64,000 nt of DNA from Nanobdellota archaeon (GCA_021818475.1 JAKADZ010000003.1:27988-91987); one strand, 5' to 3'; numbered from the stretch's first letter, positions 3,911 to 58,719 are shown. The notes: a model not told the origin generated them from the letters alone. Translations and numbers: made by a program.

Positions 3911-5398
3911 ATGGAACTAAAAGTAAAACTTCTAAAATGGTCTGCAGGATTTCCTGTGGCGATGCTGCATGAGCATACTGCAAATATAATCGGAGTTAAA
4001 ACAAAGGGGAGAGTTTTCATAAAAACTATTTCAAAAAATCCGAAGGGAGTTTATACAATAATCGACACTACAACTTCGCTTGTTAAAAAAAATGAAATCG
4101 CAATTTCCTCTGAACTTAAAGAAAGATTAAATCTCTCATTGGGGCAAAAGGTTGATGTTGGTCTTGCTCCTCTTTCCGAGAGTTTGCTCTTCATAAAAAA
4201 GAAAGTAAACAATGAGGAGCTTTCAGAAAAAGAAATTGATTCTATCATCCGCGATGTTATTGATAATTCCCTCTCCGAAGCAGAGATTGCACTTTTTATT
4301 TCTGCAATGTATGAAAGAGGAATGAATATGAAGGAGACTGTTTTCCTCATCAAAGCAATTCTTGGTTCAGGCCAGCAGCTGAAATTTGACAATAAATTTG
4401 TTGTTGATAAACATTCAATCGGGGGAATACCAGGAAACAGGACTACTCCGATAGTTGTTTCAGTCTGCGCAGCAGGAGGATTAATTTTTCCAAAATCTTC
4501 ATCAAGGGCGATTACAACTGCGGCAGGAACTGCAGACGTCGTCGAAACAATTGCAAAGGTTGAATTTTCAATTCCTGAACTAAAGAAAATTGTGAAAAAA
4601 GTCGGTGCATGTTTGATATGGGGCGGCTCGCTTGAGATAGTTCCTGCGGATGAAAAAATAATTACAATTGAAAAAATGCTTAACATTGATCCTGAATCAC
4701 AGCTTCTTGCTTCGATTATGTCAAAGAAACTGGCTCTTGGCGCGAAATACATTCTGATTGACATCCCATACGGGAAAACTGCAAAAGTAAGTTATAATGA
4801 AGGCATGAAATTAAAAAATAAATTTGAATATCTCGGCAAACATTTCAACAAGAAACTAAAAGTTGTTTTAACTCACGGTGATGAGCCTATCGGAAATGGA
4901 GTTGGTCCTGCTCTTGAAATAATGGACATCCTGAAGATTCTGAAAAATTCTGATGACAGACCTATGGACTTGGAAAAGAAATCTTTATTCCTTGCAGGAG
5001 AAATTTTCGAGATGACAGGAAAAGCAGGAAAGGGAAAGGGGATTGAAAGGGCAAGGGAAATTTTGTATTCAGGGAAAGCATTTGAAAAATTCAGGCAGAT
5101 CATAAAAGCCCAGGATGGAAATATTGACGGAATTTGCCTCGGGAGTTTTAGAAAAGATATAATCATGAAAAAAAACGGAACTATTTCTGAAATAGACAAC
5201 AAAAAAATAAATTCTCTTGCGAGAATGGCGGGATGCCCGATGGATAAATATGCAGGACTTTATCTTTATCATCATGTTGGGGACAAGCTTAAGAGCGGAG
5301 ATAAACTCATGACTGTTTATGCCGAATCAAGAGCACGTCTTAATGAAGCAGTCAATTTTTTTGAAGAACAAAAACCTATCACATTCAAAAACAACTAA
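3911..5398 (+). CDS. deoA: AMP phosphorylase / thymidine phosphorylase-family (glycosyltransferase family 3) enzyme, archaeal long form
   Basis: 495 aa with an N-terminal extension; motif DKHSIGGIPGNRTT matches the pyrimidine-nucleoside phosphorylase DKHSTGGVGD loop, followed by AAGG and TAAGTAD segments. Confidence 0.75.
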   Translation: MELKVKLLKWSAGFPVAMLHEHTANIIGVKTKGRVFIKTISKNPKGVYTIIDTTTSLVKKNEIAISSELKERLNLSLGQKVDVGLAPLSESLLFIKKKVNNEELSEKEIDSIIRDVIDNSLSEAEIALFISAMYERGMNMKETVFLIKAILGSGQQLKFDNKFVVDKHSIGGIPGNRTTPIVVSVCAAGGLIFPKSSSRAITTAAGTADVVETIAKVEFSIPELKKIVKKVGACLIWGGSLEIVPADEKIITIEKMLNIDPESQLLASIMSKKLALGAKYILIDIPYGKTAKVSYNEGMKLKNKFEYLGKHFNKKLKVVLTHGDEPIGNGVGPALEIMDILKILKNSDDRPMDLEKKSLFLAGEIFEMTGKAGKGKGIERAREILYSGKAFEKFRQIIKAQDGNIDGICLGSFRKDIIMKKNGTISEIDNKKINSLARMAGCPMDKYAGLYLYHHVGDKLKSGDKLMTVYAESRARLNEAVNFFEEQKPITFKNN

Positions 5399-6077: not shown

Positions 6078-6205
6078 GCCTCCGTCGCATAATGGTATTG
6101 CACCGGTCTTGAGTGAGGATAAAACCTCCTAATTGTTCGTCGAGGTTTCGTCAAACAAGAGAACCGGGCCTTTATGGCTTCCAGGTTCGATTCCTGGCGG
6201 GGGCG
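6078..6205 (+). tRNA. tRNA-Ser (anticodon UGA) with a ~48-nt intron at the canonical 37/38 position and a long variable arm
   Basis: Manual fold: acceptor GCCTCCG/CGGGGGC (one G-U pair); D-arm GCAT-AATGGTAT; anticodon stem CCGGT/ACCGG with loop CTTGAGT (U33, anticodon TGA 6110-6112, R37); intron ~6114-6161 interrupting the 3' anticodon stem; variable arm GCCTTTATGGCTT (13 nt); T-arm CCAGG-TTCGATT-CCTGG; discriminator G; CCA not encoded. Confidence 0.7.
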
Positions 6206-6366
6206 TGATGGCGTGATGCGGGCTTGAAATGCCCGCCTGTTCTTAACAAAATTAATGCTAGATTATTCTGAAAATTCGATTCCGAGCGATTTCACGAATG
6301 CGGGAAATTTTTGAAAGCAATGAGTGGGGTCGCGAGCATTGACGGGGGCGTTCCTACAAAATGTCT

Positions 6367-22024: not shown

Positions 22025-22072
22025 TTCAGTGCTAAATCTTAAAAACCCAGATTTTCTAATTAGAATATGAAA

Positions 22073-22134
22073 ATCAGCCTTGAGCAGTATTTCAGTGGGA
22101 AATTCGAGCGGAAGAAACCGGAGGTGTCGTCGCA
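22073..22134 (+). repeat. repeat family 2, copy a (5' UTR of secE; supplies its GGAGGTG Shine-Dalgarno)
   Basis: ATCAGCCTTGAGCAGTATTTCAGTGGGAAATTCGAGCGGAAGAAACCGGAGGTGTCGTCGCA is ~85% identical to 58656-58719 and related to 27626-27690. Confidence 0.6.
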
Positions 22135-22314
22135 ATGAAATTAATTACTAATTTAAAATCATTTTACGAGAAATGTAAAAGAGTGTGGATGGTTTTGAAA
22201 AAACCAAGCAAAGATGACTTTCTCAAAATCGCAAAAGTATCTGCAGTTGGAATTCTTGTAATTGGAGTATTAGGTTTTCTGATTTCTATTATTATGAAGT
22301 TTTTCACCCAGTAA
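22135..22314 (+). CDS. secE: protein translocase subunit SecE (Sec61 gamma)
   Basis: Manual translation MKLITNLKSFYEKCKRVWMVLKKPSKDDFLKIAKVSAVGILVIGVLGFLISIIMKFFTQ: 59 aa with a single C-terminal TM; lies upstream of the Spt5-L11 neighbourhood. Confidence 0.65.
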   Translation: MKLITNLKSFYEKCKRVWMVLKKPSKDDFLKIAKVSAVGILVIGVLGFLISIIMKFFTQ

Positions 22315-22315
22315 G

Positions 22316-22780
22316 ATGGAAAAATTAAATAATAAAAATTTTTGGACTCCTTTATTTATCGCTTCAATTATATCTATTTTATTACTCTTTTTTGCTTTAC
22401 CTTATGCTTTACTCATCTCTTTAAAATTGTTGATAGAGAATGTTCAATCCTATGGAGAAACCCTTTTGATAGATATTTTTCTCCTTCCTTTATTTTTAGT
22501 TATTGCTATACCCCCAATTTTTTTTATAATAAAGCGATTATTAAGTGATAATCCAAAAAAAGTTTTTTATTTTGAACTTCCAATTTTAATAATAGTTTAT
22601 TCAATATTATTAAGTCTTAATCAACTTTTTGGATTGATGATGGGGGGACCAAGAGATACAACTTTCCTACTTTTTCTGAGTTTAATTCTTCCGCAGATAA
22701 TAGTCATTTCTCTTTGGCTCGTTCTTCTGACCTTCTCTTTATATTTTTATTATAAGAAAAAGATTATAAACCGCAGATAA
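22316..22780 (+). CDS. integral membrane protein, hypothetical
   Basis: 154 aa with 4 hydrophobic helices; starts 2 nt after the secE stop. Confidence 0.4.
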   Translation: MEKLNNKNFWTPLFIASIISILLLFFALPYALLISLKLLIENVQSYGETLLIDIFLLPLFLVIAIPPIFFIIKRLLSDNPKKVFYFELPILIIVYSILLSLNQLFGLMMGGPRDTTFLLFLSLILPQIIVISLWLVLLTFSLYFYYKKKIINRR

Positions 22781-22791
22781 ATATTACAGGA

Positions 22792-24801
22792 ATGAATCTT
22801 GAAAAATCCTTTTTTAAGAGGATAAAAAATGTTGCAGCCGCAGTTGCAATAAGTTCTATGATTTTTGCATGCACTCCTGCAGTCTCTCCAAAGCCGTCGC
22901 AGGAAAATCAAAATCAGCAGACAACTCAGACACAACCTCAGCCTCAACCAACTAATTCGGTTTATGATTACACCACTTCTTCTGCTATTGCAGTTTCGCA
23001 GTATTTAACTTCTCAAAATGGGGGAATTGTCGAAGTGAATGATTTTAAAAGTTCAATTAATGGTGCACAATTGCAAATCTTGGCTGATTCATTAAAATAT
23101 GATACTACAATTTCTATCGGCAGAGTTGATAACCCTCCTGAACTTCCAAGCGGATTAAACTATGTCGGTCCCCCTATAGATTTAACTCCCGACGGAACTG
23201 CTTTCCGCACATCGTCGATAATAACAATCCCCTATCAAAATGAATTTTTAAGTGATGCAGGAATTTCTGATGATTCAAATTTGAAATTATACTCTTACGA
23301 CAAATTTGCAAAAAAATGGACAGAGGTAACAGGATTTTTAAAAATCCCCTCTGAGAAAAAAATAATGGCTTATGTAAACCATTTTAGTTATTATGCAATT
23401 ACAGTTATGGATGGTGTGCCCCCTTCAGATATGGGGAATCCACAGGCGGGGGATTTATTGTACTGTTTGGGTTCTATTTTTACAAATCATGGTACGGGAT
23501 GGAGGCCTGGGCACGTTGGAATTTATGTAGGGGAAAAAAGTTGGAATGGACAAAGGTATAATGTAATAGAAGCTCTTGGCCATGGTGTTCAGCGTAGTTA
23601 TTATAACCCGATATCAAATTTTAGTAATGGTTCAGTGTATATGGGCGCAAGAGAACCAAAAAATTTCACTTTAACATCTAACCAACGCAGATTAATTGTT
23701 GAATATGCAGAAGAACAGATTGGAAAACCTTATGCATGGGTGCAGACGACTGTAGGAGTTTTATTTGGATTAGCAAAAGGTTCTTTGGTAAAAGGAGGAA
23801 TTGGTTCATACAATTGTGTTGGTTTGGCAGAAGCAGCATATGAATATGCGGGAACAAATAATGGAGACGGGCTTGTTCCATATTTGCAGGAGGAGACTGG
23901 ATTTGGTGATGTGCCTGGAGCTTTAACTCCGGCAGAACAATATAATTATACTAAACCGGCAACGGGAATTTCTCCTGGATCAGGAAATAATTCTTCTTTA
24001 GAAAAAATCCTTTTTCAGTCTAATCGCGATGATGGTTCTGCAATTTACATTATGAACTCTGATGGAACAAATGTTCAGAGACTAACTGATTTATCATATG
24101 CGAGTGAAAGTCCAAAATGGAATAAGACAAGAGATAAAATTGTCTTTGTTTCAAATAAAGGGACCTCTTTTGGCCAGGAATGGAGTTCAAGATACGAAAT
24201 TTATTCCATGAACTCTGATGGAACAAATGTTCAAAGATTAACTAATAATTCTTATGATGATAATGAACCATGTTGGTCACAAGATGGGACTAAAATTGTC
24301 TTTGTTTCAAATAGGGACAAATTAACGACGGGTTATGATTTTCAATTATATATAATGGATGCTAATGGAGCTAATCAAACTAAACTCTCTCCAGATAATT
24401 TTTTTGCCGAAGAACCTTCTTTTTCTCCAGACGGAACAAAAATTATTTACAGCGGATATAATGGAGTTTATACCTTAAATCTTTCAGATAAAAAAAGAAC
24501 AAAATTAAATTCAGATAATATCAACATCCATAATCCTTCTTGGTCATCTTTCTGGGGGAAAATATTGTTTACTTCTGAAGAAGATAATCAGATTTATGTG
24601 ATGGATTCTAATGGATTAAATAAACGTAAAATAATCTCTAGCCCCGGGCTTAACTTCTGGCCTTCTTGGTCAAAAGACGAATCCAAAATTTTATTTTCTT
24701 CCAATCGAGATGGTAATTGGGAAATTTATTCTGTTTATTACGACGGTCATGGATTGACTGATCTTACTAATAATCCTTCTGCAGATATCTCCCCAAATTG
24801 A
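22792..24801 (+). CDS. lipoprotein with a permuted NlpC/P60-like cysteine peptidase domain and a C-terminal TolB-like (PD40) beta-propeller
   Basis: Lipobox-like MIFAC; His-containing PGHVGIYVG precedes the Cys-containing SYNCVGLAEAAY (permuted order); at least six SNRDGxxEIY / MNSDGTNVQRLT PD40-type repeats. Confidence 0.55.
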   Translation: MNLEKSFFKRIKNVAAAVAISSMIFACTPAVSPKPSQENQNQQTTQTQPQPQPTNSVYDYTTSSAIAVSQYLTSQNGGIVEVNDFKSSINGAQLQILADSLKYDTTISIGRVDNPPELPSGLNYVGPPIDLTPDGTAFRTSSIITIPYQNEFLSDAGISDDSNLKLYSYDKFAKKWTEVTGFLKIPSEKKIMAYVNHFSYYAITVMDGVPPSDMGNPQAGDLLYCLGSIFTNHGTGWRPGHVGIYVGEKSWNGQRYNVIEALGHGVQRSYYNPISNFSNGSVYMGAREPKNFTLTSNQRRLIVEYAEEQIGKPYAWVQTTVGVLFGLAKGSLVKGGIGSYNCVGLAEAAYEYAGTNNGDGLVPYLQEETGFGDVPGALTPAEQYNYTKPATGISPGSGNNSSLEKILFQSNRDDGSAIYIMNSDGTNVQRLTDLSYASESPKWNKTRDKIVFVSNKGTSFGQEWSSRYEIYSMNSDGTNVQRLTNNSYDDNEPCWSQDGTKIVFVSNRDKLTTGYDFQLYIMDANGANQTKLSPDNFFAEEPSFSPDGTKIIYSGYNGVYTLNLSDKKRTKLNSDNINIHNPSWSSFWGKILFTSEEDNQIYVMDSNGLNKRKIISSPGLNFWPSWSKDESKILFSSNRDGNWEIYSVYYDGHGLTDLTNNPSADISPN

Positions 24802-24873
24802 TACTACTAAAAATTTATAAACCCCAATTTTCACTTAATTATATCTTTCTAAGATATTAAGTCTTAGACGGAG

Positions 24874-24930
24874 CCGAGCGATTTTGCGAGTGCTGGTAAA
24901 AATAAAAATGCAACGAGCAGGGTCGGGAGC
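24874..24930 (+). repeat. GC-rich repeat family 1, copy B (upstream of spt5)
   Basis: CCGAGCGATTTTGCGAGTGCTGG...AAATGCAACGAGCAGGGTCGGGAGC; shares the CCGAGCGATTTYRCG core and the GGGTCG.GAG tail with copies at 6281, 26221, 37588, 44405 and 56872 (reverse orientation). Confidence 0.55.
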
Positions 24931-26176: not shown

Positions 26177-26220
26177 TTGTTTCGAAAAAATAAAACCCAT
26201 AACGGATTTGAACTTCAAAT

Positions 26221-26290
26221 CCCGAGAGTTTGCACGAGTGCGTGCAAAGATAAAAATGCAATGAGTGCGGGCTCGAGTTCGGCAGCCCCA
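26221..26290 (+). repeat. GC-rich repeat family 1, copy C, ending in a 12-nt copy of the tRNA-Pro 3' end
   Basis: CCCGAGAGTTTGCACGAGTGCGTGCAAAGATAAAAATGCAATGAGTGCGGGCTCGAGTTCGGCAGCCCCA; GGCAGCCCCATT at 26281-26292 repeats tRNA positions 26167-26178. Confidence 0.6.
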
Positions 26291-27610: not shown

Positions 27611-28297
27611 ATGGTAAAAACTCGCATCAGCCATGAGCACACTTTTAAAGGGAAAAACTGGAAAGAAGAACCGATTAGGTTCGTCTTCATTCCGGCTAAG
27701 ATAAAAGACGAGATTGATGAGAAAAAAATAAGCTCCCTGAAACTTCCCAAGACTTTAGCAATTGCTTATTCAATTCAATATAAGCCTATTGCAGAAAAAA
27801 TAAAGGAAATTCTTTCCAAGAATCATGAAATTACTTCAATAATTCAGGTTCTTGGCTGTTCTTCACCAAAATTTTCAAAAAACACAAAAGCAATTTTGCT
27901 TGTCGGTTCAGGAAGATTTCACGCTTTCTCCCTGCAGTTTGAGACAGGGATTCCTGTTTATATCTTGGAAGCAGATGAGCTGAAAAAAATTTCCGGCGAG
28001 GAAGTTGAATCTTTCAGGAAGAAAAAAACTGCATCTTACCTTAAATTTTTGAATGCAGACAAAGTAGGGGTATTGATATCAACAAAACCCGGGCAGGAAA
28101 ATCTGAAAACTGCTCTTTCTCTTAAATTAAAAGATAAAAAACAATATTTCTTTTTGGGGAATAACATTGATACTCGGGAATTTGAAAATTTTGGATTAAC
28201 TTCATGGGTGAATACTGCCTGTCCCCGACTGGATTATGACAGCTCAGTAATAAACCTTGCAAATTTAAACTCGGGCAAGTCCAAAAACAGTTTTTAA
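27611..28297 (+). CDS. diphthamide synthase Dph2-like protein, apparently N-terminally truncated (two of three domains)
   Basis: ILLVGSGRFHAFSL, VGVLISTKPGQENL, WVNTACPRLDYD resemble Dph1/Dph2 domain motifs; 228 aa versus ~330 expected. The first ~25 codons are repeat family 2, copy b. Confidence 0.4.
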   Translation: MVKTRISHEHTFKGKNWKEEPIRFVFIPAKIKDEIDEKKISSLKLPKTLAIAYSIQYKPIAEKIKEILSKNHEITSIIQVLGCSSPKFSKNTKAILLVGSGRFHAFSLQFETGIPVYILEADELKKISGEEVESFRKKKTASYLKFLNADKVGVLISTKPGQENLKTALSLKLKDKKQYFFLGNNIDTREFENFGLTSWVNTACPRLDYDSSVINLANLNSGKSKNSF

Positions 28298-33530: not shown

Positions 33531-33700
33531 AAAGTAAACTTTTTCTTAAATAAATTTTATGGCTGCCGCCAAGAATTAAAAAAAGAAAGAAAGCACAAAT
33601 CAAAGATTTGTACTAACACAAAGATGTTGTGTTAAAGTAAACTTTTTCTTAAAATAATTTTCATGGCTACCGCCAAGAATTAAAAAAAGAAAGAAAAAGA
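33531..33700 (+). repeat. tandem ~104-nt direct repeat (2 copies) just 3' of the S-layer-like gene; each copy carries a TATA-like box and a 6-codon mini-ORF
   Basis: AAGTAAACTTTTTCTTAAATAAATTTTATGGCTGCCGCCAAGAATTAAAAAAAGAAAGAAAG (33531-33593) versus AAGTAAACTTTTTCTTAAAATAATTTTCATGGCTACCGCCAAGAATTAAAAAAAGAAAGAAAAAG (33637-33700); mini-ORFs MAAAKN (33559-33579) and MATAKN (33663-33683). Confidence 0.6.
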
Positions 33701-33723: not shown

Positions 33724-36399
33724 TTAAGCGCTAGTTGTTGTGCTTGTACTTGTTGTTACAAGTGTAGCTGTTGTTGCAGAAGTACCTTGGTATTTCTTTC
33801 CAACAGTTGTATCCACAGTTTGTGTTCTTAAGTAAGTAGCAGCGTTTACAGTGTCTGCAGCTTCATAACCTGCAACAAGCAATGCAACCTTACCAGTTGT
33901 GTAAGGGCTTGCGAAGCTTTGGATCAAGAATTGTCCTGAACCAATGCCAGTAGCAGTTGTGAAATCAGCACCGCATGCAGCTGAACCTAACAAATTAGCA
34001 GCAACTGAATTTACGCAGCTTCCGCCAACTACGATTAAGTTCTTAGCACTTACTCCGCTAACTTCAGCATCTGTTACAAGAACATCTCCAAGTTGAGTTG
34101 CTCCTGTTGTTGATACCTGGCCAGCTGTTACTGTAGCAGAAACTGCTCCAGCATAAACCTGTGCATAAACTTGTTCACTTGGATAGCTTATTGAAGCTAT
34201 ATACTGATCAGAATCACTTGTATCTATTGTTGCAATACTACCATATAGGTCTGCTTTAGTTGTAAGCTTATTATTGCTATGCAATGTTAAGGCTGAACTA
34301 TTTGCGTAAGTGTCTGCAACTCCAGTAGTAGAAGAACTAACTCCTACTTTAGCTCCTGCACGTTCAGTTGTGATAACCATACCATTATAGTTATTGTTAT
34401 CATCTTTAGCTTCAATGACTTGTACTGCAGGTCCTGTTATCTGTGCTCCTCCTGGTTGGATTGGGGTTATTTGAAGTGCTTCAGAAGTTCCAGTACCAGA
34501 TACATTATAATTAAATTCTCCTGCGTGTAATATAGTAGAAGAACTTGTATCTGCTGTATTAATCAAAACACTATTTACTGTCCAATAACCAGTTGCAGTA
34601 GCATTACTTTCTGCAGAAGCAACAGTATACGTTTGATACTGTCCGTTTCCAAGAGGGAACATCAATCCAGTTACATTACTGGTTGCAATTCCATTCCAAC
34701 TTAGTAAGCTAGGGATTGTAGTAGGTTCCCAAAATGCAACTTTAGCTCCATCTTGAGTCTGTATCGTTGGATACAATATTACATTTCCACTAGCACTATC
34801 TGGATAACCAATACTAACATTCTTTCCAGAAGTTAGTACACTTCCGGCAACTCCTGGTTGTATAGTCAAGCTGTAAGACTTGCCTCCAACAGTTACTGTT
34901 CCAGTTGATGTACCTGCAACGAATGTAGAATCTATTGTGCTTCCTGTAGATTCATCAACAAATTTTACATCTGTATTAGTTGAGGTATTCAAAATACTTT
35001 GAACTTTCAAAAGATATCCTGAATTTTCATTTCCTACAACAACATAGTCTCCTTCATGAAGGAGTTTACCTTCACGAACGCTTATGTTATGTCCGTCATC
35101 GTCATGTACAAGACTGAACCATCCACCTGTTGATGAATTCTTTGCGAATACAGTAGAAATTGGATTTCCATTGTAATCGTTGAAAGCTAATTGTAGCTTG
35201 TCATCACCAGCAGAAGTTACTGCAATATTCTCTCTTGATGAAGAGTTTGCAGGAACATTTAATCCGGCAAAGTTAACTTGCACTGTTCCGAATGCAGGGT
35301 CAACATAAGAACTTCCTGGAAGTATAGCATCATGGTCTGAATCTACTGCATAGTCAGATATTGTAAGTGAAGTTAAGTTTTGTGGAGTTCCTGTCCCAAA
35401 ACTAACCATTGTCCCTTGTACAACATCATTATTGTCCCCAGTTTCGATTGATTGACCATTTATTAAAGTTAACTTATCAGAACCGGCAACAACTGATGCA
35501 GATACTACATTACCTGCCTGGCTTGAGCTTGTTACTGCAATAGTTATGCCCTGTATCTTCTTTGAAGATGCTTCGTTAACTGTTTCAGTTTCGCTTGCTC
35601 CAGTAGAGTCTGTAACTTTTATTGTTGAAGAAGTGCTTGTACCAGAAATTAATTCTACTGTATAAGTCATTCCTCCGATTGTTACAGTTGTTTGTGCATT
35701 AGGACTGCTTGCAGTTGCGCTTGATACATCCTTTGTCAAATCTATTTTCTGTGCGCTCTTTAAAAGAACTAAATCATTTGCATCTGTAGAAGAACTAACA
35801 GTAAAGTCAGTTCCAAATAAATGCAATGTTTGTCCTTCTGAGTTTGCATCAGTGAAATTTACAGCTTTATTGAATGTAGCTGTAAGATTCATCAAAGGAG
35901 CTGAACTTGTTGTGTTCAATAATATCCCATATTGAGGATCATCTGAACTTGTAGGTTGTTGTGCGAAGATTAATCTTGGAGCTTGACCAACAGTTATTGT
36001 TTGTTGTATATTGGCATCAACGTTTCCAGAGAATTCTTCATCTGCCAAAACTGTAGGTAAATCGGTCTTTGTTATAACTGTTTTAACAGTGTTTAACGGA
36101 TCATTTAAGTACAATTTTGTTCCGCCTGTGAACAATGGAGTTGCTTCTCCTGAAACACTTCCAGTTGTTGAAGTAGTGCCTCCAGCCATGTAAGACTGCA
36201 AGTTACTTTGAATGTTTCCAGCCTGAACTACATCAAGTGAAGAAACACCGGCGCCAGTACCATAAACTATTGCTACATCTGCAGCTCCAGATACCACGAA
36301 TGGACTTGGATAATTTGCCGCAGCAGCAACGCCCATAGTCATGCCTACCATCAATGCGCTAGCCGCAATTGCTGATACTTTTTTGAAATTTAATCTCAT
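33724..36399 (-). CDS. giant Thr/Ser/Gly-rich secreted surface (S-layer-like) protein
   Basis: Signal peptide MRLNFKKVSAIAASALMVGMTMGVAAAANYPSP; ~890 aa of low-complexity beta-rich sequence; strong SD AGGAGGT 8 nt before the ATG at 36399 (the ORF-track start at 36495 is upstream of this). Confidence 0.6.
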   Translation of the reverse strand: MRLNFKKVSAIAASALMVGMTMGVAAAANYPSPFVVSGAADVAIVYGTGAGVSSLDVVQAGNIQSNLQSYMAGGTTSTTGSVSGEATPLFTGGTKLYLNDPLNTVKTVITKTDLPTVLADEEFSGNVDANIQQTITVGQAPRLIFAQQPTSSDDPQYGILLNTTSSAPLMNLTATFNKAVNFTDANSEGQTLHLFGTDFTVSSSTDANDLVLLKSAQKIDLTKDVSSATASSPNAQTTVTIGGMTYTVELISGTSTSSTIKVTDSTGASETETVNEASSKKIQGITIAVTSSSQAGNVVSASVVAGSDKLTLINGQSIETGDNNDVVQGTMVSFGTGTPQNLTSLTISDYAVDSDHDAILPGSSYVDPAFGTVQVNFAGLNVPANSSSRENIAVTSAGDDKLQLAFNDYNGNPISTVFAKNSSTGGWFSLVHDDDGHNISVREGKLLHEGDYVVVGNENSGYLLKVQSILNTSTNTDVKFVDESTGSTIDSTFVAGTSTGTVTVGGKSYSLTIQPGVAGSVLTSGKNVSIGYPDSASGNVILYPTIQTQDGAKVAFWEPTTIPSLLSWNGIATSNVTGLMFPLGNGQYQTYTVASAESNATATGYWTVNSVLINTADTSSSTILHAGEFNYNVSGTGTSEALQITPIQPGGAQITGPAVQVIEAKDDNNNYNGMVITTERAGAKVGVSSSTTGVADTYANSSALTLHSNNKLTTKADLYGSIATIDTSDSDQYIASISYPSEQVYAQVYAGAVSATVTAGQVSTTGATQLGDVLVTDAEVSGVSAKNLIVVGGSCVNSVAANLLGSAACGADFTTATGIGSGQFLIQSFASPYTTGKVALLVAGYEAADTVNAATYLRTQTVDTTVGKKYQGTSATTATLVTTSTSTTTSA

Positions 36400-36407
36400 C
36401 TTTTTTA

Positions 36408-36413
36408 ACCTCC
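36408..36413 (-). promoter_or_regulatory. Shine-Dalgarno GGAGGT for the S-layer-like gene
   Basis: Reverse strand reads AGGAGGTTAAAAAAGATG. Confidence 0.55.
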
Positions 36414-36656
36414 TTTCAACTCTTTTTAACATGTTGTCTATGACAACCATCGTCTCAACGTGATATATAGGGTAATATCCTGTTGAGATGAACATTAATT
36501 TTCTAACACCCTATTAGAACACCCTTGCGAGTGTTATAGACAAAAATCCGTTTTGCTTTAAAAAACTTATTATGGCTCTTTATCATTCCTACATGAAAAT
36601 GTGGTTTTTTAGCCATTTTATTTATAAGGGTGATGGTATCACTTAATTATGATTAC

Positions 36657-37128: not shown

Positions 37129-37712
37129 CTGTAAACAGTCAGAGAAACCTCATAATCCTGCCCGCTTCTTGCAAAATCCTGGAATCCTCCCTGATATTCT
37201 GCAGTTTTATTCCCCTTATCAATAGTAAGCTTGTCCTGTCCGTCAGCACTCACTTTCAGCTCATATCCCTTTATCGCGCTTTGATTCCCCGCATTCCACG
37301 AGTTTTCAACTATTCCCGCAAACGTCGAATTAAGAACATCACAGCTTGCCCTTCCGTCAATACAGCTTTCTCCGCTATTGCATGATATAATCAAATCCTG
37401 CAGGTTAAGAAATTGGATTTCATTCTCGCAGTCAGTGGTGTATTGGAGTGAAGCCTGAATAAAACTGTCAATCTGGTAACTTTCAGTTGTTCCTTTGGTT
37501 GGGCTTTTTATTAAAAAACTAAGCAAAATCAGCAATCCTACTGACACAATGATCGCAATAAGCGCAAATCCAACCATTTCCTCTTGCCCCGAGCGATTTC
37601 GCGGAGTTAAGGTCAGTGATTTGGAAGCGAGGTCGGGAGTTGTTTTGTTGCGGTACAAATGAAAAAAATTTCCTGTTTTTTGCTTCTGCCCTTTATTATT
37701 TAATCTTATCAT
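37125..37712 (-). CDS. archaeal type IV pilin-like protein (class III signal peptide, long leader)
   Basis: ...KSLTLTPRNRSGQEEMVGFALIAIIVSVGLLILLSF: basic residues then G-Q followed by a hydrophobic helix. The leader-coding region contains family-1 element D. Confidence 0.55.
   Translation of the reverse strand: MIRLNNKGQKQKTGNFFHLYRNKTTPDLASKSLTLTPRNRSGQEEMVGFALIAIIVSVGLLILLSFLIKSPTKGTTESYQIDSFIQASLQYTTDCENEIQFLNLQDLIISCNSGESCIDGRASCDVLNSTFAGIVENSWNAGNQSAIKGYELKVSADGQDKLTIDKGNKTAEYQGGFQDFARSGQDYEVSLTVYS
37588..37639 (+). repeat. GC-rich repeat family 1, copy D, embedded antisense in the leader-coding region of pilin gene 37125-37712
   Basis: CCCCGAGCGATTTCGCGGAGTTAAGGTCAGTGATTTGGAAGCGAGGTCGGGAG is ~85% identical to 44405-44460 although the rest of the two genes is diverged. 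Confidence 0.6.
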
Positions 37713-38308
37713 GTTGTGGTTTTATCCTCTGATGCTACGAGAAGCATCGCAAGTTCGCATTTATCATAAACAATTTTCCCGTCAGTTTCTTTTCTGCACA
37801 GGGAAATATAATTTGAACTGTAAGGAAGTATTTTCACATTTTGGTCCAAAATTTTTATATCTCCGCAGTCAGGATAATTATTTGCGTCGCATATTTTATT
37901 ATTTCCTGCAGGATAAATTACCCTTATCTCTATTTTTGCAACTCCCCAGAAATTTGAGTAATCTGAATTATTTTTTAAGGCCATCACTTTGTCAAAATCG
38001 ACACAGTCTGTCGCGCTGCTTCCAAAAGAATTTCCGCATGAAAATTCAGGGGAATTTGCAAGTTTTGATACGAGGAGCATAGAACTTTCTTCTGCAATAT
38101 TAACTGCGCTTTTCTTGACATTCGAGAGAAGTATTGAAAGGAAAAAAAGCCCGACGAGAACAAAGAGAATTGTGACTGCTATAATCATAAATATTGTCTG
38201 CTGAATTTTAATCTGCCCGGATTTGTTTTTAGCAGGCGTGACCACACTTTTAAATGGAAAATCCCACGAAGAAAATCTGTGAGGTGTCGTCGCTACCATA
38301 ACATGCAC
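37709..38308 (-). CDS. archaeal type IV pilin-like protein
   Basis: ...PAKNKSGQIKIQQTIFMIIAVTILFVLVGLFF; likely start is the ATG at 38299 (MVATTPHR); overlaps neighbours by 4 and 16 nt. Confidence 0.5.
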   Translation of the reverse strand: MHVMVATTPHRFSSWDFPFKSVVTPAKNKSGQIKIQQTIFMIIAVTILFVLVGLFFLSILLSNVKKSAVNIAEESSMLLVSKLANSPEFSCGNSFGSSATDCVDFDKVMALKNNSDYSNFWGVAKIEIRVIYPAGNNKICDANNYPDCGDIKILDQNVKILPYSSNYISLCRKETDGKIVYDKCELAMLLVASEDKTTT

Positions 38309-39723: not shown

Positions 39724-39873
39724 ATCTAAAAATATCCAATATAACTTATAAATTTTTACATAACCAATCATCAGTCATGAGCACTATCTCAGGGGAAAAT
39801 GATTGTAGCGAAAAATAAATTTTTCACTAATTCGTATAAATCCAAATTAAAGAAACCGCGTAGGTTTCGTTCA

Positions 39874-42051
39874 TCAGTAACTGCTGAAGGGTCTTACAGT
39901 TATACTGCATTCATCAGGATTTGGCTGATTTCCAAATTCATCCTGGCATTTTACATAGTAATTGCTGTTTGTATTCCAGTCAGTAAAGTGGTTTATGAAA
40001 TCTGTTGTTGTCATGTTAATGCCGTCGGCAAAATTATAACTGCAGCTGTTTGTTCCATAAACGCAGTTAGACTGTTCATCGGTTACAATGTTTAGTTGAT
40101 TATTCTCATTGTAAACTCTCACAACAGTTGGTGGCTGGAAGTCGCTTTCTACAGAGAATTGTGTTGACTGTGTAGCGCAGTTTCCATTTAATTCAGCGAG
40201 GTCACAGCATTTTATTGTATAATCATAATTTCCTGCATCCAGCCATAAATCCTGAGAATGCTGGTATGAGTTTGTGTTTGCGAATAATACATAAGCGCTG
40301 TCAGGCTGAGAGGTCTGCTTGAAATCGCAATATGCCTGTCCTTTATTGTATCCTGCAGAAGTGTGAGCAGTCAATGTGACTTTCACACTTTGTGTTGAAT
40401 CTTTGATTGTGCTTCCGACGTCAGGCGTTACAGAGTCAATAACTAAAGGCTGTGTCCCGTATAAAATATATTTGTAATCTGTTGCCATAGTATACCTGTC
40501 TGATTCATTATTAAGAGGATAACTCTTACAGTTGAAATAAAAATCGTTTTCAGTGCTGTCTTTCAGTCCGTCGACTGTCCCGGAACATTTGTAATAAGTA
40601 TTTGCATTCATTTCAGTTATACTCTGGGCACAGGTCATTGTATTGGGCATATTGTCATAAGATTCATCATTATGGCTCCATTTGCAGTCTGCAGGTTTGT
40701 CTGTGTAAATATTTACATCCTGCGAAGTCTTTCCGCTTTCAACAAACCATCCATTTAAAGGTTCTGTTAATTCAATTGAAGGAGCAGTGGTATCAGGACT
40801 CTTCTGCACGCAATATTTGAATACAAATGTTCCGACATTTGAATAACCATTTTCACTCTGGCATCTTACATAGACATTGAAATTTCCTCCGTTGCTTAAA
40901 TTGATTCCCTCATTAGATAATTCCGTTAATCCGCCGTGGACAGACATTAAAGTATGATTATACAAATATTCTCCGCTGCTGATTGCCTGTGCCATCTCGT
41001 CAAATGTGTCTGTTCTGTTTGTGTCTATTTTGCACATTCCTGGTTTATCAAGGGAAATTCCATAAGTTAATCTTGTGAATGCAGGAATGCATCCATCTGA
41101 TGTTTTTTTATCTTTTATTACAACTCCTGTATCTCCGGGAAGCGTCGCAGTATAAGGGTCATATTCAAATTGTGTTTTATCCAATGGTCCATCCCATGCA
41201 GTTATTGCAGGAGGATAAACATCATTTCTGTTGTTCCAGACGCACATTTCATCACTTGTTCCTGAATTCAGCAATTTGCAACTCTGGCCTAAACTTTCAC
41301 ATTTGTATTCAGTACAGGGCAATGCTCCTTTATTGCATTGTTCACAGTCAGCTCCTCCTGTTACTGGATGCCAAGGCAGACAACTGAATTGCACTGCATC
41401 AAATCTTACATCTCTGTAAGTAAATAATGCAATTAGGACACCAATTCCTGCCCCAATTAATCCTAACCCTGAAATAACTAATCCTCCAAAAGGAAGTGCA
41501 AGCCCCCAAAGAGGAGTTCCTGTTGCAGCAGAATATAATAATCCTACTGCTGCCCCAACCCCGAATCCAATTCCCACTGCATGTGAGACAGAATCTGATA
41601 ACTGCGGACTTACTCCCATCCATTGTAAAACATAAGTTGTTCCGTAATATAATGCTACTGCAATTCCTCCGTTAGTTAATATGTTCATTCCATTAGCCCA
41701 AAGATTGGCTCCAAACTGACTCCATCCGACAAAACTTGTTCCTCCTGCTCCTCCGGCCCCACCTGCTCCGCCAGCTCCTGCTGCAGGATACATTGAAGGA
41801 TTTTCTGCTCCCATAAATGCATAAGGATTTTTTACTCCTGACAATGCTGCAGTTGGCGTGGGTGCAGACGAAAGTGCTGCTTTTGCCTCGGCCATCATAT
41901 CAGGAAGATTGGAACTAACTGTAGTTATATCTGCAGCGTTGACAAATCCAAATTCATTTCCTACAAAATAAGAAAATGCAGAAATACTTCCAATTAATAT
42001 CATAATTTCAAATATTGCAATTGCCCCTTTTTCAAAATTTTTCTTTTTCAT
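39874..42051 (-). CDS. large pilin-like/polytopic membrane protein with class III signal peptide, Gly-rich segment, 3-4 extra TM helices and a big Cys-rich extracellular domain
   Basis: MKKKNFEKGAIAIFEIMILIGSI (start at 42051 avoids an 80-nt overlap); GAGGAGGAGGAGG; hydrophobic block GIGFGVGAAVGLLY...GLVISGLGLIGAGIGVLIALF; ~40 Cys in the C-terminal 450 aa. Confidence 0.5.
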   Translation of the reverse strand: MKKKNFEKGAIAIFEIMILIGSISAFSYFVGNEFGFVNAADITTVSSNLPDMMAEAKAALSSAPTPTAALSGVKNPYAFMGAENPSMYPAAGAGGAGGAGGAGGTSFVGWSQFGANLWANGMNILTNGGIAVALYYGTTYVLQWMGVSPQLSDSVSHAVGIGFGVGAAVGLLYSAATGTPLWGLALPFGGLVISGLGLIGAGIGVLIALFTYRDVRFDAVQFSCLPWHPVTGGADCEQCNKGALPCTEYKCESLGQSCKLLNSGTSDEMCVWNNRNDVYPPAITAWDGPLDKTQFEYDPYTATLPGDTGVVIKDKKTSDGCIPAFTRLTYGISLDKPGMCKIDTNRTDTFDEMAQAISSGEYLYNHTLMSVHGGLTELSNEGINLSNGGNFNVYVRCQSENGYSNVGTFVFKYCVQKSPDTTAPSIELTEPLNGWFVESGKTSQDVNIYTDKPADCKWSHNDESYDNMPNTMTCAQSITEMNANTYYKCSGTVDGLKDSTENDFYFNCKSYPLNNESDRYTMATDYKYILYGTQPLVIDSVTPDVGSTIKDSTQSVKVTLTAHTSAGYNKGQAYCDFKQTSQPDSAYVLFANTNSYQHSQDLWLDAGNYDYTIKCCDLAELNGNCATQSTQFSVESDFQPPTVVRVYNENNQLNIVTDEQSNCVYGTNSCSYNFADGINMTTTDFINHFTDWNTNSNYYVKCQDEFGNQPNPDECSITVRPFSSY

Positions 42052-43640: not shown

Positions 43641-44492
43641 TTATGTTGTTGGCGTTAAGTATCCTGCAGGCCATATTTGCCCTCTTATTGCAAACTGAAA
43701 TTTATCTCCTGTGTCTCTGTCAGTCAGTACGTAAATTTTTCCGTCATTTCCCCTCAAAATTTTTTCTGCTTTCAGATTATGATAGTAAGTCATGTATGTT
43801 GCTACATCAACATCACCATAACTTGCTTCCCATTCGATTATACTATTAGCTATTGAAACTAATTCATAAAGATTATTATTCACCAAAACAACAAATGAAT
43901 TATACTTCTGCGCATTTTCTCCTTTTGTCAAAGTTAAGGAATAATTAAAAGTTGCGACAATCCTGTTTGGAAATAATTCAACTGTTTTCATTCCAGGTTT
44001 TAAATCGACGCTGAATCCTTGTTTGACATAACTCTGCTGCATTGATGTAAAACAGGCATCGACGTTATTGCTTATCTGATTTTTAATCTCTGATTCAATA
44101 TGTGATTTTAACATTGGCTGCTGCACTTCGCACGGACGGTAATATTCATTTGTGTAACATAGGTATTCAACTTTTGAATCGTTGTAAAGAAGATAATTTG
44201 TTGCATTTATGCTTCCTCCCTGCAGTGAAAGAGTGTCGACGGCATTTTTAATATCCTGTTCAATGCAGGATTGAATAAATTGTTGCGGACTTTGCTGTGC
44301 TGTTCCCAAACTTGTTTTAATCTGCGGATAAAAACTATAAATAAGAAGTCCTACAGCGACGATGATTATTCCGATGATAATAAAAATAGTTACCTGCCCC
44401 GAGCGATTTCGCGGAAGTAAGGTCAGTGACTTGCAAGCGGGGTCGCAAGCAGTTTTATTACTTAGAAAATTATTTCCCTCTTTTTTATCCAT
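43641..44492 (-). CDS. archaeal type IV pilin-like protein (283 aa), paralog of 37125-37712 at the leader
   Basis: ...ACKSLTLLPRNRSGQVTIFIIIGIIIVAVGLLIYSF; the leader-coding region contains family-1 element E (44405-44460). Confidence 0.55.
   Translation of the reverse strand: MDKKEGNNFLSNKTACDPACKSLTLLPRNRSGQVTIFIIIGIIIVAVGLLIYSFYPQIKTSLGTAQQSPQQFIQSCIEQDIKNAVDTLSLQGGSINATNYLLYNDSKVEYLCYTNEYYRPCEVQQPMLKSHIESEIKNQISNNVDACFTSMQQSYVKQGFSVDLKPGMKTVELFPNRIVATFNYSLTLTKGENAQKYNSFVVLVNNNLYELVSIANSIIEWEASYGDVDVATYMTYYHNLKAEKILRGNDGKIYVLTDRDTGDKFQFAIRGQIWPAGYLTPTT
44405..44460 (+). repeat. GC-rich repeat family 1, copy E, in the leader-coding region of pilin gene 43641-44492
   Basis: CCCCGAGCGATTTCGCGGAAGTAAGGTCAGTGACTTGCAAGCGGGGTCGCAAGCAG. 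Confidence 0.6.
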
Positions 44493-45359: not shown

Positions 45360-46679
45360 ATGGAAAACATTCAAAAAGAGAATTCTTCCGACCCTTCAAA
45401 AATTAAAGAAGAAAGAATAAGAAAAATAACACATTTATATTATTCCAAGCCTGAAATTCAGAAAGCAATTTTTGAATTTTCCGGAAACAGGGAAATCTCT
45501 CCCAGATATTTTGAAGGATTTGGAAAACGGCCTGATACATTTGAATATGTCGGAGATATTTTCGGACTTGTAAAAAAAGGAGCCACTTCTTTTCATTGTT
45601 CTGAAGAACTTTGGGAAAATCCCCTGAATATAATGACAAATGCAGACCGAAAAGAGCTGGATAAAATGAGAATTGGATGGGATTTGCTTTTGGATATTGA
45701 CAGCAAATACATTGATTACAGCAAGATTATGGCGAAGATAATAATTAATTTTCTTGAATTTAGCGGAGTAAAAAATGTCGGGATAAAATTTTCAGGGAGC
45801 AAAGGATTTCATATAATTGTTCCATGGAAAGCATTTCCGAAGGAAATTAACGGAGTCAAAACTTCTGATATGTTCCCGGAATGGCCGAGAATTCTTACTA
45901 AATATATCATGGAAAAAACTCATGATTATCTGATAACAGAAATTACAAAACTTCATTTTCCTGATTCAAAATATGTAAAAGACAGGGAAGCCCCGAAAGA
46001 AGTTATGCCCGATTTGATTCTTGTTTCACCGCGTCATCTTTTCAGAATGCCTTATTCCCTTCACGAAAAAACTTCACTTGCAAGTGTTGTAATTGACAAA
46101 AATAAAATTATGGAATTTCAGCCAAAAGATGCCGACCCGTTCAAAGTCGAGGTAAAAAATTTTTCTCCGAACTGTAGGGAAGGCGAAGCAACCCAACTAT
46201 TAATGCAGGCTCTTGATTGGAATAAAGAAAATTCTTTTGAAGAGGAAAAGAAAACTTTTGAATTCAGGCCTGTTCAGATTACTGACCGTTCAGAAAAAAA
46301 TTTTCCCCCTTGCGTAAAACAGATACTTCTCGGAATTAAAGACGGAAAAAAGCGTGCCTTGTTTTTTCTGATAAATTTTTTCCGCTCAATCGGAGTTGAT
46401 AAGGAGGAACTGGAAAAAATAATTTATTCATGGAACGAAAAAAATCAGCCGCCTCTTCAGGCAGGTTACATTAAATCACAGATTTCCTGGGCCTTAAGGA
46501 AAAAACCAATCATGCCCCCAAATTGCAGAGAGTTCTATCAGGGAATAGGAGTTTGCGCTTTTGATGACGCTCTTTGCAGGAAAATAAAAAATCCGATTAA
46601 TTATGTAATCAGAAAAAATTTTGCTTCTGCAAAAAGAAAATCATCGAAAAATAAAGATAATTTTAAAAATAAGGATTGA
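45360..46679 (+). CDS. priS: DNA primase: PriS catalytic domain fused to a PriL-CTD-like Fe-S domain
   Basis: PriS motifs LLLDIDS (DxD) and FSGSKGFHIIVPW; the C-terminal ~150 aa carry FPPCVKQILLG (the PPCM-like PriL-CTD motif) plus further Cys (CREF, CAFDDALC). Confidence 0.7.
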   Translation: MENIQKENSSDPSKIKEERIRKITHLYYSKPEIQKAIFEFSGNREISPRYFEGFGKRPDTFEYVGDIFGLVKKGATSFHCSEELWENPLNIMTNADRKELDKMRIGWDLLLDIDSKYIDYSKIMAKIIINFLEFSGVKNVGIKFSGSKGFHIIVPWKAFPKEINGVKTSDMFPEWPRILTKYIMEKTHDYLITEITKLHFPDSKYVKDREAPKEVMPDLILVSPRHLFRMPYSLHEKTSLASVVIDKNKIMEFQPKDADPFKVEVKNFSPNCREGEATQLLMQALDWNKENSFEEEKKTFEFRPVQITDRSEKNFPPCVKQILLGIKDGKKRALFFLINFFRSIGVDKEELEKIIYSWNEKNQPPLQAGYIKSQISWALRKKPIMPPNCREFYQGIGVCAFDDALCRKIKNPINYVIRKNFASAKRKSSKNKDNFKNKD

Positions 46680-56871: not shown

Positions 56872-56943
56872 TCCCGCCCACCCAACTCGAGCCCTCACTC
56901 ATTGCTATTATATTTTTTCCTGCATTCGTGAAAACTCTCGCCC
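56872..56943 (-). repeat. GC-rich repeat family 1, copy F (reverse orientation) in a convergent intergenic region
   Basis: Reverse complement reads GGGCGAGAGTTTTCACGAATGCAGGAAAAAATATAATAGCAATGAGTGAGGGCTCGAGTTGGGTGGGCGGG. Confidence 0.55.
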
Positions 56944-57087
56944 AAAGAGAAAATTTGTATCACCTCTTTTTTTGGGGTAGGTAGAATTTGAACAATTCAT
57001 TTTAGATTTAACATTAACTTATTTTTCTCAACGAAGCGTCGTGTCTGAAAGCCGACGCGGAGAAATTAATCTGCGTAAGCACAAATT

Positions 57088-57140
57088 CAAGGGGAAAATG
57101 AATGTAAAGAAACAGTGTAGGTGTCGTTCATTGCGAGCGA
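57088..57140 (+). repeat. repeat family 2, partial copy d
   Basis: AAGGGGAAAATGAATGTAAAGAAACAGTGTAGGTGTCGTTCATTGCGAG aligns with the 3' half of 58656-58719. Confidence 0.4.
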
Positions 57141-57157: not shown

Positions 57158-57559
57158 TCATTTCTCATCTAATTCCCGATTTAGCAATTCATCTACAATA
57201 ACCTGAAATTTATCTTCCCGTGAAACATGTTTATATTTTATTTTATGGAAGTTCTCCTGAAGTTTCTGGACTTTCAAAAATAAAGGAAGCAGATGTGGAT
57301 TTCTTACTTTATATTCTCCTAACAATTGTTTTACAACTAATTCAGAATCAAGAACACATGTAATCTCATCTTTTGTAAATCTTGATGCAAGTTCAAGAGC
57401 TTTTATCAGTGCTTCATACTCTGCAACATTGTTAGTTACAAACTTTCCTATTTTTGCAGAATATTGAGTAAGAATCTTTTCATCATCTCGCACAATTACT
57501 CCGATTGCTCCTGGTCCGGGGTTACCACGAGCTCCCCCATCGCTATTTGTGTATATCAT
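57158..57559 (-). CDS. rnhA: ribonuclease HI
   Basis: TNSDGGARGNPGPGAIG and VAEYEALIKALE. Confidence 0.8.
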   Translation of the reverse strand: MIYTNSDGGARGNPGPGAIGVIVRDDEKILTQYSAKIGKFVTNNVAEYEALIKALELASRFTKDEITCVLDSELVVKQLLGEYKVRNPHLLPLFLKVQKLQENFHKIKYKHVSREDKFQVIVDELLNRELDEK

Positions 57560-58655: not shown

Positions 58656-58719
58656 ATCAGCCATGAGCAGTATTTTAAAGGGAAATTCGTGCGGAAGAAA
58701 CCGATAATGTGTCGTCGCA
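58656..58719 (+). repeat. repeat family 2, copy c
   Basis: ATCAGCCATGAGCAGTATTTTAAAGGGAAATTCGTGCGGAAGAAACCGATAATGTGTCGTCGCAG. Confidence 0.6.

Follow-up and report, generated by a model that had tools for sequence, protein, structure and literature searches.

The repeat designated family 2 is somewhat more probably than otherwise a non-autonomous insertion element of about 60-65 nt without terminal inverted repeats (TIRs), found in DPANN archaea of the Woese-/Pace-/Nanoarchaeota type and equipped with a re-initiation cassette. As the host appears to translate almost everything from leaderless mRNAs, insertion just behind a start codon would leave a duplicated 5' ATG, from which a short upstream open reading frame (uORF) would run through the element. 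A ribosome translating this uORF would melt the tail hairpin, stop at or right beside the start codon's second copy and re-initiate there, aided by the element's perfect Shine-Dalgarno (SD) sequence (termination-reinitiation coupling). Copy a would apply this re-initiation route to secE, copy b would represent an alternative harmless outcome, in which an in-frame insertion adds 21 aa to a Dph2-like protein, and copies c-f would belong to an SD-less subfamily accumulating and decaying at the 3' ends of convergent genes.

Repeat finding combined with a profile search detected six copies of family 2, all on the plus strand, in the window, i.e. the whole 64,000-nt stretch of DNA that was analysed (Table 1). 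The profile, which was built from relatives, recovered all six of them, with E-values from 5e-18 to 9e-4, and shuffles gave an expectation of 0 chance matches to the consensus quoted in the initial annotation. That consensus is exactly copy c. The four copies counted in the initial annotation all exist, and copies e and f bring the total to six. Copy d, which had been listed as partial (57088-57140), is near full-length though degenerate, while the 13-nt piece noticed at 38281-38293 is present but forms the tail of the complete, partly decayed copy e. The placement of this piece inside the 5' end of a pilin-like gene was not upheld, as in L009 the element's outer edge is where the orthologue starts (MGKKGQ); the start of the pilin-like gene thus probably lies downstream of copy e. 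No further family-2 copy was found in the 8-9 kb of source contig scanned beyond either window end.

Table 1. Positions of the repeat copies and of the features associated with copies a and b, counted from the first nucleotide of the window.
Feature	Position	Strand	Remarks
Copy a, class 1	22073-22134	+	profile E 5e-18
Copy a, head	22073-22102	+	
Copy a, hairpin tail	22103-22134	+	TTCGAGCGGAAGAAACC GGAGGTG TCGTCGCA
uORF from insertion, ATG AAA + element, 23 codons	22067-22138	+	MKISLEQYFSGKFERKKPEVSSQ; leaderless-type
Shine-Dalgarno GGAGGTG, partly in hairpin loop	22120-22126	+	8 nt, then secE ATG at 22135
secE, 59 aa, gene invaded by copy a	22135-22314	+	Pfam PF00584
Copy b, class-2-type head and loop (AAA...GATTAGG)	27626-27689	+	profile E 4e-11
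Dph2-like ORF, 228 aa	27611-28297	+	207-aa short-family protein + 21-aa element-encoded N-terminal extension
Copy c, class 2, perfect head, loop GATAATG, no SD	58656-58719	+	profile E 4e-16
Copy d, degenerate head, intact tail	57068-57130	+	profile E 6e-5
Copy e, class 2, decayed head	38231-38294	+	profile E 9e-4
Copy f, class 2, ~42-nt internal insertion (about 39808-39849)	39770-39873	+	repeat finding and profile
Family 1 copies	6290-6340, 24870-24925, 26220-26285, 37585-37649, 44395-44459, 56881-56940		last copy reverse

The family-2 element measures about 63 nt (range about 60-65) and consists of a near-invariant 30-nt head and a hairpin tail. The head begins with ATCAGCCNTGAGCA, ends with GGGAAA and follows the consensus ATCAG(C/T)CNTGAGCA(G/C)NNTNT(C/T)A(A/G)NGGGAAA, and the tail is composed, in order, of a variable 5' arm, (A)AGAAA(A)CC, a loop of 4-7 nt, GGT(G/T)T(C) and a complementary 3' arm. 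The hairpin arms vary among copies with their complementarity kept, and arms paired more stably with their own partners than with permuted ones (mean -4.4 vs -3.6 kcal/mol, P=0.009), which amounts to modest covariation. The hairpin of copy a reaches -7.5 to -8.5 kcal/mol, and the commonest stem type is a weak hairpin of -2 to -4 kcal/mol. Single-sequence folds were no better than those of shuffles (z -1.9 to +0.8), and the head yielded neither a consensus fold nor a significant predicted one. The hairpin was slightly more stable on the forward than on the reverse strand (20 vs 10 copies), a difference that does not indicate the functional strand. In 10 copies, matching the first 22 nt against the reverse-complemented last 22 nt gave scores no better than those of shuffles, and no TIRs were seen. 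Searches of the window against Rfam at gathering score returned tRNA matches only, and at E<=5 the seven copy-bearing loci gave two sub-threshold snoRNA matches, which lie off the copies and were taken as chance.

The proteins adjoining the copies are 56-87% identical between orthologues, yet the head is near-invariant. Its invariance is partly a matter of ascertainment, because the head search pattern fixed 21 positions; selfish spread by itself does not account for it, and the invariance points to a conserved partner.

The consensus features of several known element types were also compared with family 2 by eye. Neither in its boxes nor in their arrangement did it fit C/D-box or H/ACA sRNAs, hammerhead or other small ribozymes, group II intron domain V, BHB introns, archaeal origin-recognition boxes or integron attC. 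A DGR template/variable repeat was rejected as well, since the differences between copies are not limited to adenines and the copies do not lie in sense at gene 3' ends.

Family 2 is not unique to the window, as about 45 further places in Woese-/Pace-/Nanoarchaeota MAGs and metagenomes carry it. The degenerate head pattern matched 8 archaeal loci in 4 DPANN MAGs, labelled Woesearchaeota (5 copies on 5 contigs), Pacearchaeota, Nanoarchaeota and 'uncultured archaeon', and 42 metagenomic loci, or about 40 when L016 and L046, both apparent chance matches, are left out. The viral contigs searched with the head pattern gave no match, and a viral origin was rejected on this ground.

Two subfamilies can be told apart by sequence and by position. 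In class 1 the head ends in ...AG(T/C)GGGAAA and the loop holds CCGGAGGTG, the hairpin contains the perfect SD GGAGGTG 8-9 nt 5' of the start of a real gene, and the element sits exactly on gene starts. The same motif at the same spacing was found in 19 more class-1 copies outside the window, which bears out the initial assignment of copy a as the SD of secE, although copy a does not literally end in GGAGGTG, 8 nt separating the motif from the secE ATG. The genes downstream of class 1 encode MTAP (four lineages), an MtnA-like isomerase, S8e, aEF-1beta, SecE, PolB-like, primase-like and aCPSF1-like proteins, membrane proteins and others. Class 2, which makes up half of all copies and has no downstream gene, ends its head in ...AA(A/G)GGGAAA, carries the loop CCGAT(A/T)AGG and is without a full SD. 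Subfamily and context were very strongly linked, with 19/23 copies combining AGY and GGAGG located at a gene start versus 0/22 of the other copies (Fisher P=4e-9).

With its hairpin end, class 2 faces a convergent gene or tRNA at the latter's 3' end, and often abuts the stop codon, as in window copies e and f, or the tRNA discriminator base, as in L018, L021, L027 and L045. Copy e takes up the gap between two minus-strand genes, from the stop of one encoding 326 aa (CTA 38293-38295) to where the pilin-like one starts, and the 3' end of copy f borders the stop codon (TCA 39874-39876) of a convergent 753-aa gene. Copy c lies 87 nt from the stop of a convergent SPOUT methyltransferase gene and copy d 28 nt from that of a convergent RNase H gene (57158-57559, minus strand). 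In L009, the syntenic counterpart of copy e bears a family-1 insertion. Class-2 copies frequently form zero-spacer head-to-tail arrays, are nested or 5'-truncated, or have family 1 between head and tail. The degenerate heads of copies d and e, the 5'-truncated and nested copies and the head-to-tail arrays are signs of decay, in a pattern typical of copies that are presumably dead.

Retention of the head in class 2, despite there being no gene to serve, could also mean that these copies are small RNA genes or part of a sense/antisense network, in which class 2, or its reverse complements borne by the 3' UTRs of the convergent genes and tRNAs, would target the identical class-1 leaders in trans, either through pairing or through titration of a factor. 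Transcribed as part of the neighbouring gene or tRNA, whose 3' trailer it would form, the class-2 reverse complement would have complete complementarity to class-1 leaders, and the tandem arrays resemble decoy RNAs. This explanation is nonetheless quite improbable, given that class 2 has no consistent upstream promoter or downstream terminator, that copies d and e are visibly decaying and that the comparison of folds with shuffles revealed no structure signal.

The conserved head and the hairpin enclosing both SD and start codon are, on the other hand, features expected of a conserved cis-regulatory leader, i.e. a riboswitch-like or protein-binding 5' RNA controlling an MTA/SAM-related regulon, with the head as the sensor and the SD hairpin as the expression platform. 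Such a leader would agree with the presence of family 2 at MTAP genes of four lineages, at the MtnA-like gene and at the gene of the MTA-producing Dph2-like enzyme, as well as with the modest stem covariation. We regard it as rather unlikely, since the other downstream genes (secE, S8e, aEF-1beta, PolB-like, primase-like, aCPSF1-like and membrane proteins) are unrelated, the unbiased MTAP genes in L007 and L035 are without the element, and class 2, half of the copies, faces a convergent gene or tRNA 3' end and has no gene to control. Moreover, the head is without significant predicted structure and no Rfam family matched the element even at E<=5.

The preferred reading, a re-initiation cassette carried by an insertion element, depends on how translation starts in this organism. 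Among the 58 window genes (long ORFs), a TATA box (TTTATAAA, TTATAAAT or TTTAAATA) starts 26-30 nt 5' of the ATG in about 21, and an SD precedes at most 3, so that the window organism looks almost wholly leaderless and nearly SD-free. In such a leaderless, SD-free host, the secE locus reads as a 5'-terminal ATG, a 23-codon uORF, an SD hairpin, an ATGA overlap and secE itself. The ATGAAA at 22067-22072 is repeated at 22135-22140, and the uORF TGA overlaps the secE ATG (ATGA). About 11/19 class-1 copies have an upstream ATG with the same TATA distance, and with this spacing the transcript should begin at the upstream, duplicated ATG. In 15/19 class-1 copies the uORF through the element ends between -4 and +13 nt from the main ATG, with an ATGA overlap in six. 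The uORFs are 21-27 codons long, or longer where there is an internal insertion. At L035 the signals form a relay, the ATG of the uORF being overlapped by the stop of MTAP, and that of MtnA by the stop of the uORF.

The upstream ATG is located 3 nt before the head in the CAG subfamily and 2 nt before it in the CAC subfamily, which use frame 1 and frame 2, respectively, and it is always in the open frame. Because the reading frame differs by subfamily, what is conserved appears to be an open frame delivering ribosomes to the main start, and not a peptide. It is accordingly very improbable that the frame-1 peptide M-x-ISxEQYFSGK..KKPEVS is itself the functional unit, as a leader/arrest peptide or small protein. 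Its frame is open in most copies, even across insertions of 40-60 nt (L025, L037, P0121-P0131), and in the Dph2 fusion its translation is certain, but the CAC subfamily uses the other frame and encodes an unrelated peptide. Codon 3 may be H, R, L or P, the C-terminal half changes with the stem, and KKPEV merely reflects the SD and hairpin sequence. A peptide profile search recovered only 11 tiny ORFs, all element-derived, and the proteins from the peptide search were ascertained for openness.

Archaea dominated by leaderless transcripts use SD sequences to re-initiate where gene pairs overlap, and local structure keeps ribosomes from initiating de novo (Huber et al. 2019, PMC6728339). Class 1 resembles these gene pairs in its ATGA or near overlap, the SD within the upstream ORF and the structure at the junction; unlike in those pairs (PMC6728339), the upstream 'gene' of class 1 is a 21-27-codon by-product of insertion and stands before many unrelated genes. 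The layout of copy a fits termination-reinitiation, the coupling and the leaderless initiation themselves being inferred from sequence.

Family 2 is gained or lost at orthologous sites. The secE site, filled in the window, is empty in L053, whose secE is 80% identical, and the gene order is unchanged, both sharing secE-Spt5-L11-prefoldin-SepF-Dph2. The empty site in L053 reads ATGAAA directly followed by CTA, and so has a single ATGAAA, versus ATGAAA, element, ATGAAA TTA at the filled site in the window. The same picture, with ATGAAT, was obtained for the MtnA-like gene (L035 filled, L025 empty). For MTAP, L013, L025, L039/44 and L040 carry the element and L007 (81% aa identity) and L035 do not; for S8e, L050 carries it and L021 does not; and the Dph2-like gene is filled in the window and in L052-54 and empty in L055 and more than 100 homologues. 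The empty orthologous sites hold one copy of the flanking repeat. At 5/21 class-1 copies both ends of the element directly adjoin direct repeats, which are 6-10 nt long and contain the start codon (ATATGGCA, GGCATGGT, AATGAAT, TTCCAATGAA and ATGAAA), compared to 0.78 expected from permuted pairings (P=0.0002).

The filled and empty orthologous sites, together with the flanking direct repeats at gene starts, argue that family 2 is, or was, mobile. No TIRs exist, no flanking direct repeats are visible at the class-2 copies checked and 16/21 class-1 copies have no clear ones, so that the case for transposition is made solely by the indels and the five repeats. No transposase, reverse transcriptase (RT) or integrase was found among the window ORFs, and none was enriched among 130 neighbouring ORFs. 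Insertion mediated by RNA looks likelier than cut-and-paste transposition, as a lead only, because of the variable repeat length, the lack of TIRs, the conserved 3' hairpin, the 5' truncations and the end-to-end arrays. A look-up of secE for population polymorphism of copy a returned one distinct place only. MTAP starts carry family 2 in at least three apparently independent forms, which hints at selection or regulation over neutral insertion.

The Dph2-like gene shows what would be the other outcome of an insertion. It is leaderless, with the TATA box TTATATAAA at about -29, and copy b adds 63 nt without a frame shift, after codon 5 and ahead of the conserved FIPAK motif, the 3' arm of its hairpin extending into the gene's own FVFIP codons. 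The repeat had initially been assigned to codons 5-25; it is indeed translated as the N-terminus of the ORF, and P0010 and P0021 retain the same in-frame fusion, but the codons concerned are 6-27. In the window as in two more distant genomes (L052-54), 63 nt of element separate codon 5 (or 2-3) from FIPAK and keep the frame, and since the variable stem ACTGGAAAGRAGAACC is common to all of these, the fusion is probably one old event.

The ORF is about 100 aa short at its N-terminus, as first noticed: it matches Pfam PF01866 at profile positions 62-274 of 302 only, and the short-family protein P0002, which shares 85% identity with the window protein, covers residues 126-330 of the 378-residue P. 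horikoshii Dph2 chain 3lzc_A, corresponding to domains 2-3 of this solved three-domain enzyme. The initial annotation explained the shortness by an insertion that removed and replaced the N-terminal ~100 aa of a canonical Dph2, and the ORF does lack domain 1 and have element sequence as its N-terminus. There is next to no chance that this is correct, however, as the comparison with PF01866 and with related proteins revealed a complete member of a shorter family, whose more than 1000 DPANN members measure 200-210 aa, have MKTLFIPAK as their N-terminus and are without domain 1 although they carry no element. The closest homologue, in L055, is 85% identical and shares the TTATATAAA promoter, its ATG being leaderless too, but it has no element, and nothing is deleted between codon 5 and FIPAK. 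With its closest relative both short and element-free, the gene must already have been short when the element inserted in frame after codon 5. Judged from these alignments, the Dph2-like gene lost nothing and was lengthened by 21 aa at its N-terminus. Of the long window ORFs scanned (most of them), no other one matched PF01866.

Some further observations were made on the contig and on the loci carrying family 2. A second repeat, family 1 (CGAGCGATTTCGCGGAAGT..AAGGTCAGTGAT..GCGGGGTCGCGAG, about 55-65 nt, with small terminal hairpins), occurs after both tRNA genes, before Spt5 and within two minus-strand ORFs, towards their 5' ends, and in L009, L025 and L026 it separates the head of family-2 copies from the tail. 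Two genes between secE and Spt5 (22316-24801), one for a membrane protein of 154 aa and one for a PD40 beta-propeller/C92 peptidase-like protein of 669 aa, are absent from the syntenic L053. A 128-nt tRNA at 6078-6205, detected by Rfam and missed by ARAGORN, presumably contains an intron. One ORF (45360-46679) combines primase small- and large-subunit domains (fused PriS-PriL), and a 53-nt segment is directly repeated at 33540-33696, with 104-nt spacing and 89% identity, just 3' of the stop of a 923-aa minus-strand gene (33724-36495). The contig also carries an AMP-phosphorylase-like gene (Glycos_transf_3/PYNP_C, window 3911-5398) and, about 5.9-7.4 kb past the right end of the window, a RuBisCO large-subunit gene (L059 1931-3400), and their presence on one contig suggests the archaeal nucleotide-salvage pathway. 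MTA-linked (5'-methylthioadenosine-linked) genes are over-represented beside family 2, with MTAP (four lineages, with different stem types), the MtnA-like gene and the MTA-producing Dph2-like gene, at L013, L025, L035, L039, L040, L044 and window copy b. A short conserved sequence, AAACCAAATTGTAGACTCGAAGGTTTGCTC, follows or takes the place of some tails (L008 5640-5720, L028 1090-1130); it is directly repeated within L008, and L008 and L028 have the upstream motif GAGGACAATARCAAAYCTGAGAAT in common.

DPANN archaea have tiny, gene-dense genomes, the repeats of which have been little studied. Family 2 illustrates how a mobile repeat may persist where spare DNA is scarce, by way of gene boundaries and of signals that would keep the invaded gene expressed. 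The class-1 loci (secE, MTAP, S8e, aEF-1beta and others), in which a leaderless uORF, a hairpin and an SD precede the gene, are natural constructs for asking if SD-assisted termination-reinitiation operates in a leaderless and otherwise SD-free archaeon. For annotation, ORFs starting with M-x-ISxEQYFSGK should be treated as element-derived uORFs or N-terminal extensions, and not as gene truncations. A bolder reading, which we put forward as possible but doubtful, is that of a self-neutralising, TIR-less and possibly RNA-mediated repeat, restricted to Nanoarchaeia-type DPANN, which colonises gene boundaries with a portable re-initiation cassette and whose head is the recognition site of its machinery. 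The boundaries would be start codons, stop codons and tRNA 3' ends, and the cassette would consist of open frame, hairpin and perfect SD, by which a leaderless gene would become uORF-coupled and SD-dependent instead of being killed. The near-invariant 30-nt head would serve a mobilising or RNA-binding machinery. If true, the element would be a translation-initiation counterpart of introns, which act at the RNA level, and of inteins, which act at the protein level.

Among known repeats, MITEs acting on their neighbours, such as the Neisseria Correia element, are short, non-coding, multicopy and non-autonomous, and the archaeal ones reviewed come from Sulfolobus, Halobacterium, Haloquadratum and Desulfurococcus, with none from DPANN (PMC10969869). 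Family 2 is MITE-like in being small (~63 nt), non-coding and multicopy, with six copies in 64 kb and filled and empty sites at five genes, and it shares with MITEs, at some class-1 copies, flanking direct repeats, and more generally the insertion next to or into each other and the expression signals for the adjacent gene (PMC10969869). Unlike MITEs, it has no TIRs and no candidate parent IS among the window ORFs and 130 neighbours, and it supplies a translational signal (SD and uORF) and not a promoter. Copy b recalls the Rickettsia palindromic elements (RPEs; PMC10969869), being an in-frame insertion within a coding gene of a reduced genome, with the fusion conserved in L052-54. RPEs are, however, about 150 bp long and mostly intragenic, whereas family 2 is usually found at gene starts or ends, with the in-frame insertion of copy b as the exception, and both sequences and hosts are unrelated.

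REP/BIME elements combine a short conserved linear motif with a hairpin, and they are found at gene 3' ends, obey orientation rules and form tandem clusters, all of which are shared by family 2. The 30-nt head is, however, far longer than the REP tetranucleotide, and no RAYT/IS200-like gene was seen. To our knowledge, HUH-mediated spread of REP yields no flanking direct repeats, in contrast to those of class 1. The lack of TIRs, the variable flanking repeats of 6-10 nt, the conserved 3' hairpin and the 5'-truncated copies with intact 3' ends are reminiscent of SINEs and target-primed retroposition, as are the zero-spacer head-to-tail arrays, which would be expected from end-to-end template switching. 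Unlike SINEs, family 2 has no A-rich tail, and no reverse transcriptase lies near the copies (window ORFs and 130 neighbours). We know of no established case of SINE-like retroposition in archaea, and a SINE-like origin of family 2 is suggested here by analogy, as a lead and not as a test. Searches of the literature for a DPANN repeat family, leader or riboswitch found no description of family 2, which thus appears to be previously undescribed. It behaves like a MITE or REP but lacks the TIRs, and is unusual in carrying a restart module where a promoter might have been expected.
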